A stretch of 64,000 nt of DNA from a virus. Its lineage: Duplodnaviria > Caudoviricetes. The translations under genes and the position numbers were made by a program. The DNA lies in IMG/VR virus record IMGVR_UViG_3300050142_000050, positions 185,639 through 249,638 of that record; one strand, given 5' to 3'. A model generated the notes under the pieces. It saw only the letters and a program-made list of their open reading frames with translations, was not told the origin of the DNA and did no database searches. Shown piece by piece: positions 999 to 43,505 of this stretch; positions within the stretch are counted from its first letter, which is position 1, and the number at the start of each line of letters is the position of its first letter.

Positions 999-2867
999 AT
1001 GAACGATATGGCAGCTCGATTCCCAGGTCGACGCAAAGCAGTTACCCCTCCCAACGCCTTCAAGCGTGATCGTGAGATCCCTGATGTGTGGGTGGACGAT
1101 TCACGTGACGAACTGTTCATGGACTTTGCCCGCGCTACATTGGACGACATCTATCTGTCCCCCACTGAGAAATACCAGGATCGTATCGCTAATGCTCATC
1201 GCGCGTACGCTGACGATCAAGCACATGCCCAGCGCATGTATGAGTACTCGTCCAAAGGTTGGTGCATTCCTGCTACGCCTATCCTGGCTAATGGTGGTAC
1301 CACTCGAGGTCTTCCGATCTCGTGCTACCTGACTCATGTTCAGGACGATATGAAGGACATCATCGGCCACTGGGCCGAGATCGCTCATCTGGGTCATAAG
1401 GGTGGTGGTATCGGATCTTACTGGGGCGATGTCCGATCGGCCGATGAGAAGATCGGTCTCATTGGGAAGTCGTCTGGCGTGATGCCGTTCCTAAAGGTAG
1501 ATGATGCCCAGACTGCCAGTATCAGCCAGGGTAACGCACGACGTGCATCTGCGGTCGTGTTCCTCGACATCGATCACCCAGAGATCGAACTCTTCGTCGA
1601 GATGCGTCAGAAGACTGGTGGCGATCCCAAGTACAAGTGCCTCAACCTACATCATGGGGTGGTCATCACCGATGCCTTCATGTGGGCAGTAGTCATTAAT
1701 GGTCAATGGGACCTGAAAGCCCGCACGACAGGATTGGTCGTGAAGACCCTGAGCGCTCGAGCGCTATTCGAGAAGATCATCGAATATCGCATGGCCAATG
1801 GTGAGCCGTTCATCCTGTTCCTTGAGAATGCGAACAAGCATGTCCCCATTCACCACAAGAAAGCAGGACTCCTCGTACGAACATCCAACCTTTGTATGGA
1901 GATCCTTCTTCCCACCGGTAGAGATCAGTACGGTAATCATCGTACTGCGGTCTGTGCCCTTTATCAGCTGAATGCTGAAAAGTTTGACGAGTGGAAAGAT
2001 GATCCGAACATCATCGAAGATGTCGCTCGTTTTATGGATAACGTCTTGACCGACTATATCGACCACGCCGGTCCTGACTTCGCACGAGCCACCTATTCGG
2101 CACAGCGTGAACGCTCGATTGGTGTGGGCCACTTCGGTATCCATTCCTACCTCCAGATGAAGAATGTCCCGGTATCTTCGCCGATCGGTATGGCTATGTC
2201 GACAAAGATCGCCAAGCATATCAATGACGGCATGAAGGCTGCTTCGTATAAGCTCGCAGTCGAACGTGGCCCGTGCCCTGATGCGGCCGACTATGGGATC
2301 ATGGAGCGATTCTCCTGTAAAACCGCCATGGCTCCCACCGCTTCAGTATCTATCGTAGCAGGTGCTGGATGCTCAGCAGGTGGTGACTTCATCCCGGCGA
2401 ATATCTACACACATAAGACCAGGGTCGGTTCTTGGTCTGTCAAGAATAAGTGGTTGACGAAGGTGCTGGACGCCTATGGTAGGAATACCAATGAAGTCTG
2501 GGATTCGATCGTGAAGCACACGGGGTCGGTGGCCCATCTTGACTTCTTGTCAGATCACGAGCGTGATGTGTTCAAGACTGCCTATGAGATCGATCCGAAG
2601 TTTGGTATCCTCTACAACGAGGCTCGTATCCCTCACATCGACCAATCACAATCGTACAACATGTACATCCCACCGATGATCGATCGTGCCGAACTGATGC
2701 GTATCCACATCGACGGTTGGATGCGCGGGATCAAGTCCTATTACTACCTGCGTACTCTGGCTCCTAGCCGTGGTGATAGCAGTGATGGTGAAAAGATCCA
2801 GGTCGTGGGATGGACTCCGGAAGAGCCGGGTAAGGTGACCTACGAAGAATGCACTTGGTGTCAGTGA
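999..2867 (+). CDS. nrdA: ribonucleotide reductase class Ia alpha subunit
   Basis: PATPIL, PISC, SNLCMEI (N-C-E catalytic motif), TAMAPTAS, YYLR tyrosine pair, C-terminal CTWC redox pair. Confidence 0.97.
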   Translation: MNDMAARFPGRRKAVTPPNAFKRDREIPDVWVDDSRDELFMDFARATLDDIYLSPTEKYQDRIANAHRAYADDQAHAQRMYEYSSKGWCIPATPILANGGTTRGLPISCYLTHVQDDMKDIIGHWAEIAHLGHKGGGIGSYWGDVRSADEKIGLIGKSSGVMPFLKVDDAQTASISQGNARRASAVVFLDIDHPEIELFVEMRQKTGGDPKYKCLNLHHGVVITDAFMWAVVINGQWDLKARTTGLVVKTLSARALFEKIIEYRMANGEPFILFLENANKHVPIHHKKAGLLVRTSNLCMEILLPTGRDQYGNHRTAVCALYQLNAEKFDEWKDDPNIIEDVARFMDNVLTDYIDHAGPDFARATYSAQRERSIGVGHFGIHSYLQMKNVPVSSPIGMAMSTKIAKHINDGMKAASYKLAVERGPCPDAADYGIMERFSCKTAMAPTASVSIVAGAGCSAGGDFIPANIYTHKTRVGSWSVKNKWLTKVLDAYGRNTNEVWDSIVKHTGSVAHLDFLSDHERDVFKTAYEIDPKFGILYNEARIPHIDQSQSYNMYIPPMIDRAELMRIHIDGWMRGIKSYYYLRTLAPSRGDSSDGEKIQVVGWTPEEPGKVTYEECTWCQ

Positions 2868-2928
2868 CCCAAGACTGACTTCTTTCATCGAACCGTCCGT
2901 AGTCAATTTTACAAAGAAAGCTTCAGAG

Positions 2929-4128
2929 ATGACTTCTTTTACTCTCTTCGACAATGAACCCACCATCGAAGAAATCACTCTTCAGCGTCGTGATAAGGTG
3001 ATGAATGGAATCCACAATGGATCTATTCCTCATGAGAAGATCGCCTATATTCCGATGGAATATCTCGATGTCACCAGCATCCCTGGCGTGGCCAGTGAGA
3101 ATATCCTGACTGAGTCCAGAGTCTACAAGCCGTTTCGATATGAGTTCGGCTATCGGATGTATGAGATGCAGAACAATCTGCATTGGATGCAAGACAAGAT
3201 CTCCATGGACGAAGATATCGTGCAATTCGGTCGGCTTCCTGATCAACAGCGAGAAGTCCTTGAGGACATCTTCCCGATGTTCGTGAAGAATGACATGGTG
3301 GCTGAAGACTTCTGGGCTGGTAAATACCAGCGCATCTTTAAGCCCCATGAGATCCAGATGGGCATCGGTGCTGCTGTCAACATGGAGGCTATCCATAAGA
3401 GTGCCTATGCCTACCTATTGGATTCTCTGGCATTCCCTGTGGGTCGCTACAGCGACTTCTTGACCCATCAGGAAGCCACTGATAAGCTCGACTACACGAC
3501 GGGCTTCCATATGACCTCGCTGTACGAGACCCTGGCATCGATCTTCATGTTCGGTGCGATGACTGAGGGTGTACAGCTCTATGGGAACTTCGCAGTCATG
3601 ATGAGCTTCCCTCACCGCAATCTGATGAAGGGTATGGGTCAGGTGGTGACCTGGTCGGTGCGTGATGAGAGTCTGCACTGTGGGTTCGCAGCACAACTGT
3701 GGAAGCACACTCTTCTGGAGTTCGGTCATCTCATTGACATCAAGGCTCTCTTCACATGGTGTCAGAAGATCGCCCATCGGGTATATCAGAATGAGGTCGG
3801 TTTTGCAACCCTGATCTTCCGCCGTGGTCCTCTTCCGGATATGACGTTCGAACAACATTGCCAATACATGCGTCACCTGATTGACTCGCGTCTGAAGTCT
3901 TATGGGATCGCACCCATCTTCGGTGAACCTGAGACGCCGTATGACTTCTTGACGTCTCTTCTGTCAGGCGTCGAATATGCCAACTTCTTCGAGCAGCGTG
4001 CTACTGAATACGGCATGGCGAACCTGACTGGTTCGTTCCAGCCTGCATACGGCGCAGCACTGAGCGAGATCGACTTCATCAAGGAAAAACGCAAGTCTCT
4101 TGGTTTTGCTGTACCCGAAGGGGTTTGA
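2929..4128 (+). CDS. nrdB: ribonucleotide reductase class I beta subunit
   Basis: EAIH, EGVQL and DESLH di-metal ligand motifs, radical Tyr in HKSAY, NFFEQRATEY tail; follows nrdA. Confidence 0.95.
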   Translation: MTSFTLFDNEPTIEEITLQRRDKVMNGIHNGSIPHEKIAYIPMEYLDVTSIPGVASENILTESRVYKPFRYEFGYRMYEMQNNLHWMQDKISMDEDIVQFGRLPDQQREVLEDIFPMFVKNDMVAEDFWAGKYQRIFKPHEIQMGIGAAVNMEAIHKSAYAYLLDSLAFPVGRYSDFLTHQEATDKLDYTTGFHMTSLYETLASIFMFGAMTEGVQLYGNFAVMMSFPHRNLMKGMGQVVTWSVRDESLHCGFAAQLWKHTLLEFGHLIDIKALFTWCQKIAHRVYQNEVGFATLIFRRGPLPDMTFEQHCQYMRHLIDSRLKSYGIAPIFGEPETPYDFLTSLLSGVEYANFFEQRATEYGMANLTGSFQPAYGAALSEIDFIKEKRKSLGFAVPEGV

Positions 4129-39580: not shown

Positions 39581-40396
39581 TTAAAGAGCCGCATAGACAA
39601 TCGCATCGAGCCTCTTGGGGTCCATGAGCATGGCACCCTTGAGTTTGCGCAGATGTTCGTTATACTGCTCGATCTTACCGAGATATTCATCGATGAGTTT
39701 GGAGATGACGCCGATCTCCATACCAGAGACGACAGCTGTCTCATCGATCTTGACTTGGAGCTGTACCCCGATGTAACGCTGTACTGCGCACAGTGCCAGT
39801 TCACGTAGTGCTAGGATCATGGACTGTGTTGCATTCATGAACTCTGCATCATACTCGAGGAGTACGCTCAGGCCCAGACCTGAGAAAGATGCCACCTGAT
39901 CCACACGGACCATGTTCGTACCCACCAATTCCACATTGGGCAGTGGGAGGGGGTAGTCGTCTACTCGTGAAGAGAGCATAGCTGATGCGGCTGTGATCAG
40001 ATTGTTAGCACCGCCAGGTCCGGTCTCCAGATTGGTGTAGCCAGCAGGGAGTGATCCGATACCACCCCGGTTAGCACCTAAGACAGCCGAGATGTTCTGG
40101 AAGTCACGGGCTTGAGGAGGGATCATGTAGAACGATCCCTGTGTCACAGTCCCCAGGACTAGGAAGTTGGTGTCATCCTTGATGTTCACAATCCAATCGG
40201 GATTGAGGACGATATCACGACGCTTACCACCTACCAGGTTGACGTCATCCAGGAGGATACCATTGATGACCTCATCGAAGATACGAGCCTCCAGACTGGT
40301 GTTGTGGAAACCTGGGTTGAAAGCCAAGGTCAGGAGTTCGTTGGGGATATTGGCCTTGATGTACTTGTAGATGTAAGAGAGGGTCGACAAAGCCAT
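39581..40396 (-). CDS. conserved phiKZ-like putative virion structural protein
   Basis: Only clear minus-strand gene (271 aa, AGGAGG RBS). The IP.ELL..AF...SLE..I...VI...L.D.NL.GG pattern is recalled from jumbo-phage virion proteins. Confidence 0.65.
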   Translation of the reverse strand: MALSTLSYIYKYIKANIPNELLTLAFNPGFHNTSLEARIFDEVINGILLDDVNLVGGKRRDIVLNPDWIVNIKDDTNFLVLGTVTQGSFYMIPPQARDFQNISAVLGANRGGIGSLPAGYTNLETGPGGANNLITAASAMLSSRVDDYPLPLPNVELVGTNMVRVDQVASFSGLGLSVLLEYDAEFMNATQSMILALRELALCAVQRYIGVQLQVKIDETAVVSGMEIGVISKLIDEYLGKIEQYNEHLRKLKGAMLMDPKRLDAIVYAAL

Positions 40397-40481: not shown

Positions 40482-41420
40482 ATGCCCATCATCAATCGAA
40501 TCGAGACGGATATGTTCCGTTTCCAAGATTGTGTCGACTACATGGTGAACCCTGTAAATCTTGAAGGTATCTCCGGTAAGGGCTTGGCCCATGAGTTCCG
40601 TATGAGGTGCCCTGACAGTATCGAAGTCTACAGGACCATGTGCCGCACGAAAGAGTTGCGAGTAGGTACTGTGACCACATATGACGGTGCTGAACAGAGG
40701 TGGGGTATCATCTATCTCCCCACTAAGCGCAGCCCCTATGACCTGTCGTCTAAGGAGGACATCCAACGTGGTCTGGTGGCACTGCGCAATCTTCTCAAGA
40801 CAGATAAGTTCAAGAATGCCGTGATCGGTCTACCTATGTTAGGCTGTGGTAATGGGCAGAACAGCTACGAGATCGTCTATCCGATGATGATCGAGTTACT
40901 GAGTGACCTAGATGCTACCATCATCATCTCCATGAACCCAGAGCGCACAGAGGTACGACCTAAGTATCTCTCGATCGTAGGAGCATCCGATTTCGGAGCT
41001 GATGAGAACGATCGTACGATCATCGATAGGGTGATCGCTTCATGTATGAAGAAGTGGGGATATGCCCTGTCTGACTATACAGGGATATTGGTCCATGGTA
41101 GTGGTCCCACCGAACAATACATGGAGATCTATGCTCAGAAGGAGATGGTACCTGTTCTGAAGGTATCTTCTAATCCTGTCAAGCATCCAGCAGGTCATCC
41201 CATGGAAGCTGATCGTACACTCAGTATCTTGGGTCACGACATGATCATCTTCTCTCCGGTAGATCGTGACACGAAACGAGGAGAGTCCGTGAAACTCATC
41301 CGCTCATCAGTGGATCAGCGCAATGACGACGATAGTCCCAAACAGATGGCAGTCTACTTCCGGAGTGTCGCAGATTCGATCTCTAGAATGAGTAAGGAAG
41401 TCCCATGCGAGAAAACCTGA
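40482..41420 (+). CDS. DarG-like macrodomain fused to SLOG (YspA/DUF2493-like) domain
   Basis: VNPVNLEGISGKGLAHEF...P, LPTK, LPMLGCGNG macrodomain motifs; C-terminal SIVGASDF...ILVHGSG...YAQKEMVPV SLOG-like pattern. Confidence 0.82.
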   Translation: MPIINRIETDMFRFQDCVDYMVNPVNLEGISGKGLAHEFRMRCPDSIEVYRTMCRTKELRVGTVTTYDGAEQRWGIIYLPTKRSPYDLSSKEDIQRGLVALRNLLKTDKFKNAVIGLPMLGCGNGQNSYEIVYPMMIELLSDLDATIIISMNPERTEVRPKYLSIVGASDFGADENDRTIIDRVIASCMKKWGYALSDYTGILVHGSGPTEQYMEIYAQKEMVPVLKVSSNPVKHPAGHPMEADRTLSILGHDMIIFSPVDRDTKRGESVKLIRSSVDQRNDDDSPKQMAVYFRSVADSISRMSKEVPCEKT

Positions 41421-41827
41421 CTCTGACGATCATTTCCTCTCATATCGTGGGGAGAGGATCTTCTATCGATCTACTCGCAAAGATTATGCGAGAGACTGGA
41501 TTGCATCTCACGAGGACCAGGCAGTGGGTACCTTGTTCCCACACCAAGCAGGCTCTGTCTCATCCGTTTAGTGGGATACCTTTCCCCGTCGATGTAGAGT
41601 CGATGTGTAAGAATGGTAAACCTATTCTAATTTGCCTCTGGGAGGGCGATAGAGCTTATGAGATGATGATTGGGTGTGTGGGTACCAATGATCGTGAAGA
41701 GTGGTCAGAGAAGTCTCTGAACGCGATTAACACCCTGCCTCAGGATCCCACTCCAGCTATCCTGACATCCGATCCAAAGCGTATGAGAGAAGATGCTCTT
41801 ATGCTCCTTTTACCTGATGATTTTTAG
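41405..41827 (+). CDS. nucleoside diphosphate kinase-fold protein lacking catalytic residues
   Basis: Colinear with NDK over 140 aa (TLTII..IVGRG, GKPILICLWEG.RA, GTND, AILTSD). The catalytic HGSD reads LTSD. Confidence 0.7.
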   Translation: MRENLTLTIISSHIVGRGSSIDLLAKIMRETGLHLTRTRQWVPCSHTKQALSHPFSGIPFPVDVESMCKNGKPILICLWEGDRAYEMMIGCVGTNDREEWSEKSLNAINTLPQDPTPAILTSDPKRMREDALMLLLPDDF

Positions 41828-41871
41828 GCCTACTCTATGGACCTTTAATCTACCCAGAGGGAGGATTGAGT

Positions 41872-42051
41872 ATGCCGAATCGTACTCTGGTGATCAGCGT
41901 TATGTTGACCATACTGGTTATAGCTAGTGTGGTGGGAGTAAGCCTGGTATTCCCAGGTGGGAAGCCGATTGGATTCGATGATATCATCATCGGTGTCTTT
42001 TTCTTAGGTATGCTTTTGAAGCTGATAAGGAGACTACTGTGCCGAAACTAG
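41872..42051 (+). CDS. small two-TM membrane protein
   Basis: GGAGG RBS; two hydrophobic segments. Confidence 0.7.
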   Translation: MPNRTLVISVMLTILVIASVVGVSLVFPGGKPIGFDDIIIGVFFLGMLLKLIRRLLCRN

Positions 42052-42557
42052 ATATAGGAGTGCAGAGTATCGACTCTGCAAGCACATCACTCTTGGGTCT
42101 CATCGATGCGGTGCGTGACCAGGTCGAGACGATCGATCTCCCTGCCAATTCGACAGACCCTTATCAGAACCTGCGTGTCCTCAAGGCAGCAGCTGATTTG
42201 TTTCTGCTCCAGCGTGAGAAGCTCATCGCACTCTCGAGCGCTATCGCATCTCCGTCTATCCTAGCTCTGGCTGGAGCTGACAGTCTGACAGATGCACAAA
42301 AGACGACACTGCGTGAGCTGATCGGTTTCAATTCAGTTATTGTCGCTGAAGTCGACCAAGCTGTGAACAAGGCCACTGCTGCAACAGTCGTGGATGAAGT
42401 GGATGAGTCGATCAGGGCCATCCTCGAAAATCTCACCATGTGCGAGATCAAACTCAGTGGTATCAGTCCTGATGATGAAAACTACGCAGCAGCACTGTCA
42501 CAGCAGCAGTCCCTCAAGCTATGCATTGAAAGTCTCATGCCCACCAACTCAGTGTGA
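42039..42557 (+). CDS. acidic helical/coiled-coil protein
   Basis: GTG start after AGGAG, overlaps upstream gene. Confidence 0.7.
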   Translation: MPKLDIGVQSIDSASTSLLGLIDAVRDQVETIDLPANSTDPYQNLRVLKAAADLFLLQREKLIALSSAIASPSILALAGADSLTDAQKTTLRELIGFNSVIVAEVDQAVNKATAATVVDEVDESIRAILENLTMCEIKLSGISPDDENYAAALSQQQSLKLCIESLMPTNSV

Positions 42558-42902: not shown

Positions 42903-43505
42903 ATGTCTTATCTCACCGCTCGTTATGTCGTCGTCGAAGGTCCTGACTATGTCGGTAAGAGCACCTTCGTTCGTGATCTTCATCTCGATTTGGGTATGAC
43001 CGAAGAGATCGTGAAGCTCGCTTTCCCAGCCAACCGTGAAGATGTCCCTATTCGGGATCTCCTCTTCAACAGCGTTATGAATGATTATCGCAGTGGTGCT
43101 GCTTTCTTGTTCATGGCAGACTTCGTTCTGGCTCATGACCTCAACATCAAACCACGCCGTAGGGATGGTAACCTCAAGTTCATCCTCGATCGGTTCGTAC
43201 CGACGCTGTGTGTCTATCAGAAGGTACCTCTGGTGGAACTCAATAGTTTCTTCTCGAAGATCCCTGCTCTCGATGAGTTTATGGAGGATATGAGCCAGGC
43301 TCACTATGTGTTCTTGGATCCTACGGATCTGGACAGTCATCTAGGTAGGATGCGTTCACGCCTCAAACAAGGTGACACCAACTCCTACGATCCTACCACA
43401 ATCGAGGATGTGAAGACTCAGATCGAGGATTATCGTAAGTTTGTATCTGAGGCATATACCCACGGTATCCTGGGGTCCAAGAGGATTGATGTTATAGGTG
43501 TATAA
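42903..43505 (+). CDS. tmk: thymidylate kinase
   Basis: VVVEGPDYVGKST P-loop, FP motif, ILDRF motif. Confidence 0.88.
   Translation: MSYLTARYVVVEGPDYVGKSTFVRDLHLDLGMTEEIVKLAFPANREDVPIRDLLFNSVMNDYRSGAAFLFMADFVLAHDLNIKPRRRDGNLKFILDRFVPTLCVYQKVPLVELNSFFSKIPALDEFMEDMSQAHYVFLDPTDLDSHLGRMRSRLKQGDTNSYDPTTIEDVKTQIEDYRKFVSEAYTHGILGSKRIDVIGV

Follow-up and report, generated by a model that had tools for sequence, protein, structure and literature searches.

Analysis of a 64,000-nucleotide stretch of viral DNA (the window), which forms the last 64 kb of the 249,638-bp IMG/VR virus record IMGVR_UViG_3300050142_000050 (CheckV completeness, 89%), revealed a gene for a 140-amino-acid protein, P0001, that descends from nucleoside diphosphate kinase (NDK) but is related to it only very distantly. 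The protein lacks the residues that NDKs use for phosphotransfer, and we consider it most likely, with a probability of about 0.6, that this NDK-descended copy is kept for a non-catalytic role, in binding or as a scaffold. P0001 belongs to a small family, not described before and so far found only on contigs of uncultured giant phages, of which it is the most degenerate member. The gene and the features of its product are listed below, with positions counted from the first letter of the window; relatives are the nine other members of the family.

41405 to 41827 (+): coding sequence of the 140-amino-acid NDK-like protein P0001, an open reading frame (ORF) with NDK homology by profile and fold
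41417 to 41440 (+): β1, residues 5 to 12 (LTLTIISS), with Ser11/Ser12 where relatives and NDKs have Lys (in most followed by Pro); a strand at residues 5 to 11 in the structure model
41450 to 41458 (+): G16-R17-G18, invariant in 10 of 10 members, corresponding to the NDK α0 segment
41519 to 41536 (+): R39-Q-W41-V-P-C44 at the end of β2, with R, W, and C invariant in the family
41618 to 41647 (+): KPILICLWEG, residues 72 to 81, equivalent to NDK β3 (SGPxVxxVxEG) by the alignments; a strand at residues 73 to 80 in the model
41720 to 41722 (+): Asn106 at the site of NDK Arg104 by the alignments (Arg in 9 of 9 relatives)
41735 to 41746 (+): L111-P-Q-D114, by the alignments a degenerate form of the family's first His motif (H-P-x-D)
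41756 to 41767 (+): A118-I-L-T121, probable β4, by the alignments a degenerate form of (N/T)-V-V-H (NDK N-x-x-H117) without the His; a strand at residues 118 to 120 in the model

Sequence and fold evidence for NDK homology

A sequence-only reading of the window had claimed that P0001 aligns with NDK from end to end, and library searches agree with it: the matches in Pfam, NCBIfam, and the PDB are weak but collinear. NDK (PF00334) was the sole Pfam family matched at an E value of ≤1 (E = 0.17, 12.2 bits), with residues 6 to 105 lying on profile positions 3 to 100 of 135, and the NDK equivalog NF001908 was the sole match in NCBIfam (E = 0.13). In a BLASTP comparison, P0001 and E. coli Ndk were 20% identical across 81 collinear residues (pairwise E = 0.003). 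When 1.84 billion representatives were searched exhaustively with phmmer, one true homolog emerged, P0004 (27% identity, E = 8e-5). Three further phmmer matches, P0002, P0003, and P0005, were false and driven by repeats.

Profile comparisons strengthened the signal as members were added. A two-sequence profile of P0001 and P0004, searched against 177,635 PDB sequences, retrieved only the NDK 3zto (E = 0.24), with positions 2 to 128 on 2 to 124. Compared by hhalign with a self-built reference alignment of 10 NDK sequences, the same profile reached a probability of 82.7% (P = 9.5e-6, 120 columns) and a score of 37.6; 300 column shuffles scored 11.5 ± 2.3 (maximum, 19.6) and the reversed alignment 11.6. 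The corresponding values for a nine-sequence family alignment that includes P0001 (A3) were 93.6% and P = 2.2e-7 over 127 columns. All five PDB matches of the A3 profile were NDK domains, the best being the second NDK domain of CFAP67B (E = 0.013), and four of the nine A3 members reach the Pfam NDK family singly (best E = 1.9e-5). The NDK homology is thus supported by a family of 9 to 10 members (A3 and the 10-sequence alignment A8) together with a structure model that finds NDKs.

This model was predicted by AlphaFold2 (AF2) from P0001 and P0004, with neither an NDK sequence nor a template. It contains a strand at residues 5 to 11, a helix at 18 to 31, a strand at 34 to 43, helices at 44 to 55 and 64 to 67, a strand at 73 to 80, helices at 84 to 93 and 102 to 109, and a strand at 118 to 120, which is the order of NDK β1, α1, β2, αA, α2, β3, α3, Kpn-loop helix, and β4. 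In a Foldseek search of the PDB, the top matches of the model were nearly all NDKs (E from 3.7e-3, probability 0.97 to 1.00, TM score ~0.4 to 0.46). VIA-align against 48,161 chains placed NDK or NDK-like chains in all of the top nine positions (Z = 6.5 to 7.5, 87 to 117 residues aligned), among them mimivirus NDK, the RP2 C-terminal domain, and axonemal NME-type chains. A fold search of BFVD returned weak matches only, including a Tupanvirus NDK and a phage protein annotated with an NDK-like domain. The model therefore predicts an NDK fold for P0001, with a ferredoxin-like sheet, an αA/α2 hairpin, and a Kpn loop. Because the model is weak and its margin in Z over other folds is small, we base the homology mainly on the profile comparisons and use the fold in their support. 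Profile comparison and AlphaFold had been named in the sequence-only reading among the checks on its proposal, and both point to NDK, the latter through a low-confidence model with the NDK order of elements. A model predicted from the single sequence of P0001 was useless (predicted local distance difference test [pLDDT], 36).

Active-site residues in P0001 and its relatives

In the NDK pocket, Lys10, Tyr50, Arg86, Thr92, and Arg104 (M. tuberculosis numbering) bind the phosphates, Lys10 and Asn114 bind the 3'-OH of the ribose, and Phe58 stacks on the base (PMC7554756). His117 acts as the nucleophile, the pocket also contains Ser119 and Glu128, and the α0 segment forms the pocket floor and part of the dimer interface (PMC7554756). 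These residues were mapped onto P0001 by hhalign, MAFFT L-INS-i, and MAFFT E-INS-i with the 10 NDKs; E. coli numbering is used from here on, in which early residues are one higher than in M. tuberculosis. All three methods place S11 at K11, S52 at Y51, I89 at R87, N95 at T93, and N106 at R104. Furthermore, N114 is replaced by P117 or A118 and H117 by L120 or T121, with L111 at the first His motif of the family. The substitution of the catalytic His, the Lys, both Arg residues, and the Asn, which the sequence-only reading had asserted, is therefore borne out by three alignment methods. They also reproduced the matches quoted there, namely, TLTIISSHIVGRG over the β1/α0 segment, GKPILICLWEG over SGPxVxxVxEG, VGTND over GATNP, SLNA over TLRA, and AILTSD over xxHGSD.

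Two features of P0001 are independent of any alignment: His occurs only at positions 13, 34, 46, and 53, leaving none in the C-terminal 87 residues, and residues 1 to 15 contain no Lys. The absence of the His holds under both alignments of the C-terminal part described below. The positions of Glu128 and Ser119 are taken by Asp130 or Ala131 and by Ser122, varying with the alignment, and the Kpn-type loop is about eight residues shorter than in the relatives. Kept are F60, which corresponds to the base-stacking Phe, E80-G81, and G93.

Relatives of P0001 were found chiefly through its upstream neighbor, a gene for a DarG-like macrodomain protein with a C-terminal domain (CTD). In seven loci with an orthologue of this protein, a clear relative of P0001 and P0004 is the first or second downstream gene (hmmsearch E = 1e-16 to 1e-33), and a scan of metagenomes added an eighth locus (L025) on the 243.6-kb contig FSSH01000099.1. 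The nine relatives in alignment A8, which is A3 plus L025 as the tenth member, are thus P0004 and the proteins of loci L014, L015, L017, L019, L020, L021, L024, and L025; in these eight loci, as in the window, the gene lies one to two genes downstream of the macrodomain/CTD gene. In L025, the pair occupies positions 1956 to 3441 of what is a second near-complete giant-phage contig, one that would lend itself well to genome comparison. The pair is not always contiguous, as an unrelated gene for 150 to 158 amino acids lies between its two genes in L021 (3972 to 4448) and L019 (1688 to 2140). P0004 is encoded alone on a 512-nucleotide contig, JACCDV010473349.1 (L001), of the very fragmented assembly GCA_013565675.1; the contig is probably stray phage DNA. 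Compared with the other eight members of A3 by hhalign, P0001 reached a probability of 96.5% (P = 8.7e-10, 132 columns).

In two further loci, L022 (2300 to 2701) and L023 (3992 to 4240), the ORFs overlapping the macrodomain gene at its end are not demonstrably NDK-like (hhalign P = 0.41 and 0.01); they may represent copies that have diverged even further or genes that replaced them. No PHROG, deposited phage, or IMG/VR contig matched the NDK-like family, and neither PADLOC nor PHROGs, known nucleotide sponges and defense proteins included, held a family that matched P0001 or any relative at E ≤ 1 or 0.1. A word-index search with P0001 returned only P0001 itself, present in about 28 assemblies, tblastn and megablast searches of phages with P0001 returned nothing, and the same was true of pattern scans for it in IMG/VR and JGI metagenomes.

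Closer examination of the family alignment showed that G-R-G, R-x-W-x-x-C, Asp82, and Gly93 are invariant in all 10 members, P0001 included. All nine relatives carry the Lys of an I-K-P motif (Lys11) and the Arg of an L-R motif (Arg104), the latter followed three residues on by Tyr (Phe in one), so that their L-R-x-x-Y matches L-R-x-D-Y/F of NDK. His is present in the first His motif, H-P-x-D, of five of the nine and in the second, (N/T)-V-V-H, of seven, the other two having Tyr, and in no relative are both motifs missing. P0001 alone is without the Lys, the Arg, the Tyr or Phe three residues past it, and both His motifs. In the most NDK-like members, L021 and L024, HMMER aligns N-V-V/I-H with NDK N-x-x-H117 and A-E-x-E-A...L-F with A-x-R-E128...F. 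Moreover, a Glu follows about 10 residues past the His of the second motif in six of seven members, and both members with Tyr for His have Ile for Glu. Such co-variation would be the pattern expected of a His-Glu pair, as His117 and Glu128 form in NDK. On the strength of this pattern and the HMMER alignment of L021 and L024, we favor the second motif as the candidate β4, with a Kpn-type loop that exceeds that of NDK by 3 to 8 residues.

With either motif as β4, the relatives are without Tyr51 and Arg87, and most of them also without Thr93; from these residues they would at best be unusual kinases. The sequence-only reading had taken P0001 for a repurposed pseudo-enzyme that might soak up nucleotide signals, poison host Ndk as a dominant-negative subunit, or act as scaffold in a phage deoxynucleotide synthesis complex. 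As far as an NDK homolog without catalytic residues is concerned, this stands; P0001 is, however, not an isolated pseudo-enzyme but the most degenerate member of a family. Since the others keep Lys11, Arg104, and a His (mostly with the Glu), the label "dead" fits this copy and not the family.

Role of P0001 and rival explanations

Because the ping-pong mechanism of NDK goes through His (PMC13256974), P0001 would, judged by its residues, be unable to run it and would thus be no ping-pong nucleoside diphosphate kinase. It would therefore not be the kinase that completes the deoxynucleoside triphosphate (dNTP) pathway of the phage. At the same time, P0001 keeps all residues invariant in the family (I10, G16-R17-G18, L24, L35, R39, W41, C44, D82, and G93) and 15 of the 30 positions common to at least seven of eight relatives, at an overall identity of 20 to 28% (about 24%). 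An intact ORF, a strong ribosome-binding site, and the retention of half of the near-invariant positions at so low an identity are the reasons why we regard a non-catalytic job as most likely. P0001 might bind a partner protein or oligomerize through its α0/α1/β2 face; as these elements are conserved, self-association or association with another protein is the most natural guess. Alternatively, it could hold a nucleotide-like ligand without turnover, a possibility weakened by the loss of all phosphate ligands. Complex prediction for P0001 and the macrodomain/CTD protein, both entered as alignments, gave a score of 0.00, which counts neither for nor against binding.

Several observations weigh against a retained, NDK-derived binding protein. 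Confidence in the AF2 model is low (pLDDT, 50.5; predicted template modeling score, 0.44), and generic ferredoxin-like folds follow the NDKs at Z values of up to 6.2 over ~75 to 85 residues, a margin of only ~1 Z. Applied to the family consensus, hhalign prefers the first His motif rather than the second, so that there are two alignments for the C-terminal third. Furthermore, maximum-likelihood (ML) distances are ~2.0 substitutions/site for the NDK-like relatives versus 0.8 to 1.3 for neighboring proteins, and the P0001 branch measures ~3 substitutions/site. On so long a branch, residues could have been lost because selection was relaxed and not because the protein took on a new role. The NDK-like family is the fastest evolving of four neighboring proteins compared, which fits either an accessory or an arms-race role.

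In the main rival explanation, an ancestral NDK-like phage enzyme became dispensable in this lineage and its gene is drifting as a decaying relic that is not yet broken. Along with the long branch in a fast family, the loss in P0001 alone of catalytic-type residues common to nine relatives speaks for decay, as does the upstream protein, whose CTD has likewise lost motifs that its relatives share. We nevertheless judge a relic unlikely. The 140-codon frame is open, for which our own arithmetic gives a chance of ~0.1% without selection, and the gene has a good ribosome-binding site and overlaps its upstream neighbor. The GRG, R, W, C, D, and G residues are all kept among the surviving conserved positions, and the excess divergence of P0001 (2.13) equals that of a control, the neighboring DUF7484 protein (2.04), leaving no extra acceleration. 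If P0001 were a relic after all, little would be gained beyond an improved annotation of giant-phage dark matter. At the other extreme, the NDK likeness could be due to chance and P0001 an unrelated phage orphan. The weak structure model and single-sequence matches that all stay far under the curated cut-offs (12.2 versus 27 bits in Pfam, 12 versus 155 bits in NCBIfam) are what such an orphan would give, but NDK came first in four libraries or methods independently, the signal grew as members were added, more canonical relatives reach E = 1.9e-5, and shuffle controls lie far lower; we hold a chance likeness to be extremely improbable.

Other alternatives accept the descent from NDK and differ in the job. 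P0001 might be a decoy or poison subunit that joins the oligomers of host Ndk via the dimer face, either recruiting Ndk to phage dNTP synthesis or blocking it; such a block could, for example, keep host Ndk from producing dITP, the alarm signal in Kongming-type defense. The retained invariants lie in α0, α1, and β2, which are dimer-interface elements of NDK, the phage record contains no canonical ndk, tmk lies 1 kb downstream, and phage T4 recruits host Ndk. The identity of P0001 to bacterial Ndk is only ~16 to 20%, however, and we see little prospect for this proposal. About as little can be said for a ligand sponge, in which a remodeled pocket would bind a signaling nucleotide, an ADP-ribose derivative, or a dNTP without turnover. 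The NDK fold is a nucleotide binder, F60 is kept, the pocket floor GRG is invariant, and the neighbor has a DarG-like ADP-ribose-removing domain; yet all phosphate-binding side chains (the Lys, two Arg, Thr, and Tyr) are gone in P0001, F60 is not conserved in P0004, and no sponge family of PADLOC matched. Very improbable, in our estimate, is an enzyme that works by other residues or chemistry, for example through Cys44 or His53. C44 is invariant in 10 of 10 members, H53 is common to P0001 and P0004, and 3'-5' exonuclease activity has been reported for the NDK-fold proteins NME5, NME7, and NME8 (PMC13256974), but H53 is not family-wide and none of the libraries scanned recognized a catalytic motif. 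A broader proposal, that the macrodomain/CTD protein and P0001 form a counter-defense module of the phage with P0001 as host-Ndk decoy or nucleotide-alarm trap, we consider improbable as well; if true, it would provide the first NDK-fold pseudo-enzyme in the arms race between phages and bacteria.

For a non-catalytic P0001, comparison with known systems provides some context. P0001 shares with canonical NDK (PF00334; E. coli Ndk, PDB 2hur) the length of ~140 amino acids, a collinear alignment, the succession of strands and helices, the αA/α2 hairpin, a Kpn-type loop, EG after β3, Gly91, and the base-stacking Phe, whereas Lys11, Tyr51, Arg87, Thr93, Arg104, Asn114, and His117 of the enzyme are all replaced. 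As a precedent from eukaryotes, NME7 domain B (CFAP67B), NME5, NME8/9, and RP2 have kept the NDK fold as structural or binding modules in which kinase activity is absent or unproven (PMC13256974). CFAP67B is the best PDB match of the family profile, and RP2 and radial-spoke NDK-like chains rank near the top of the structural matches. These group II NME and RP2 domains are eukaryotic, ciliary or GTPase linked, and often part of multidomain proteins, in contrast to the stand-alone phage protein; the likeness would most simply reflect a parallel loss of constraint, and we claim no orthology. Mimivirus NDK, the first viral NDK, is an active kinase that forms hexamers and is adapted to deoxypyrimidines (PMC7554756). 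It resembles P0001 as a virus-encoded NDK fold with an altered Kpn loop and is the second-best structural match (PDB 2b8p; Z = 7.1, 102 residues), but it is active, whereas P0001 has no active site.

Literature searches on NDK in jumbo phages and on catalytically inactive proteins in phages yielded no phage pseudo-NDK. Among 50,697 phage records, canonical ndk was present in only 23; many of these resemble host DNA and several are unverified or prophage-like, with a 636-kb uncultured phage and Mollyvirus among the genuine cases. Few enzymes of life are as conserved as NDK, which is rare in true phages, and the giant-phage lineage studied here has a diverged NDK-like family. The members of this family form a natural series from semi-canonical copies with Lys, Arg, and His to a copy that has lost the catalytic residues and kept the family invariants. 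This series allows one to ask what role an NDK fold has without phosphate transfer and whether it is used against host nucleotide metabolism or nucleotide-based immunity.

Gene neighborhood of P0001

The giant phage represented by the record has no close relative among the 50,697 deposited phages, and its tubulin-like gene has a sole match, in Xanthomonas phage RTH11 (34% identity). Genes and sites around P0001 are the following.

999 to 2867: nrdA, by library scan
2929 to 4128: nrdB, by library scan
40482 to 41420 (+): upstream gene for the DarG-like macrodomain (residues 1 to 150) and a CTD without a recognized family
41394 to 41400 (+): Shine-Dalgarno-like AAGGAAG, ending 4 nucleotides 5' of the ATG, read from the sequence
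41405 to 41420 (+): 16-nucleotide overlap of the P0001 gene with the end of the macrodomain gene, P0001 being in the -1 frame relative to the macrodomain frame
42903 to 43505: tmk (thymidylate kinase), 1 kb downstream of the P0001 gene

The overlap of the two genes, also pointed out in the sequence-only reading, amounts to 16 nucleotides. A fusion of both products by -1 frameshifting was rejected. As no canonical slippery heptamer is seen in the overlap, it probably serves translational coupling rather than fusion. The same reading had described a dNTP pathway in the window; nrdA, nrdB, and tmk were confirmed, with nrdAB ~37 kb upstream of the P0001 gene, but a dNMP kinase, also part of that description, was not found among the 30 window ORFs scanned. 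Neither a canonical ndk nor a paralogue of P0001 is present in the 249.6-kb record.

The macrodomain of the upstream protein matched Pfam Macro (E = 4e-7) and PADLOC DarG (E = 5e-29), and the match to NCBIfam antitoxin_DarG (1.4e-26) is under the cut-off. Metagenome contigs as long as 90 kb carry full-length orthologues of this protein (38 to 46% identity). Its CTD had no sequence match in Pfam or the PDB, also with an eight-sequence profile, and the label "SLOG-like" for this domain was not confirmed. The CTD of the window lacks the motifs S-G-G-x-x-G-V-D-x-Y and H-N-N-N-R and about 10 residues common to its relatives.

Identity ratios of 0.58 for P0001 and 0.59 for the CTD, versus 1.00 for the macro N-domain, were behind the idea that P0001 and the CTD had accelerated together. 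This idea was withdrawn because the DUF7484 control shows the same ML distance ratio (2.04 versus 2.13 and 2.16), the window phage simply being an outgroup. Compared with loci L014 to L024, the macro N-domain (40482 to 40925) has an ML distance ratio of 1.03, and the CTD, the NDK-like gene, and DUF7484 all have ratios of ~2.1. The N-domain is thus unusually close, as near to the relatives as these are to one another, which means that it is either very strongly constrained or was recently exchanged between phages.

Directly 3' of the P0001 gene lie two mutually overlapping ORFs, one for a hydrophobic peptide of 61 amino acids (41866 to 42051) and one for 172 amino acids (42039 to 42557). Neither matched PHROG or PADLOC families, and the longer one shows a weak match to the GA module (E = 1.3e-4, under the cut-off). 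The only minus-strand gene nearby encodes the DUF7484/phrog_3179 protein (39581 to 40396), and its place and orientation are kept in every related locus.

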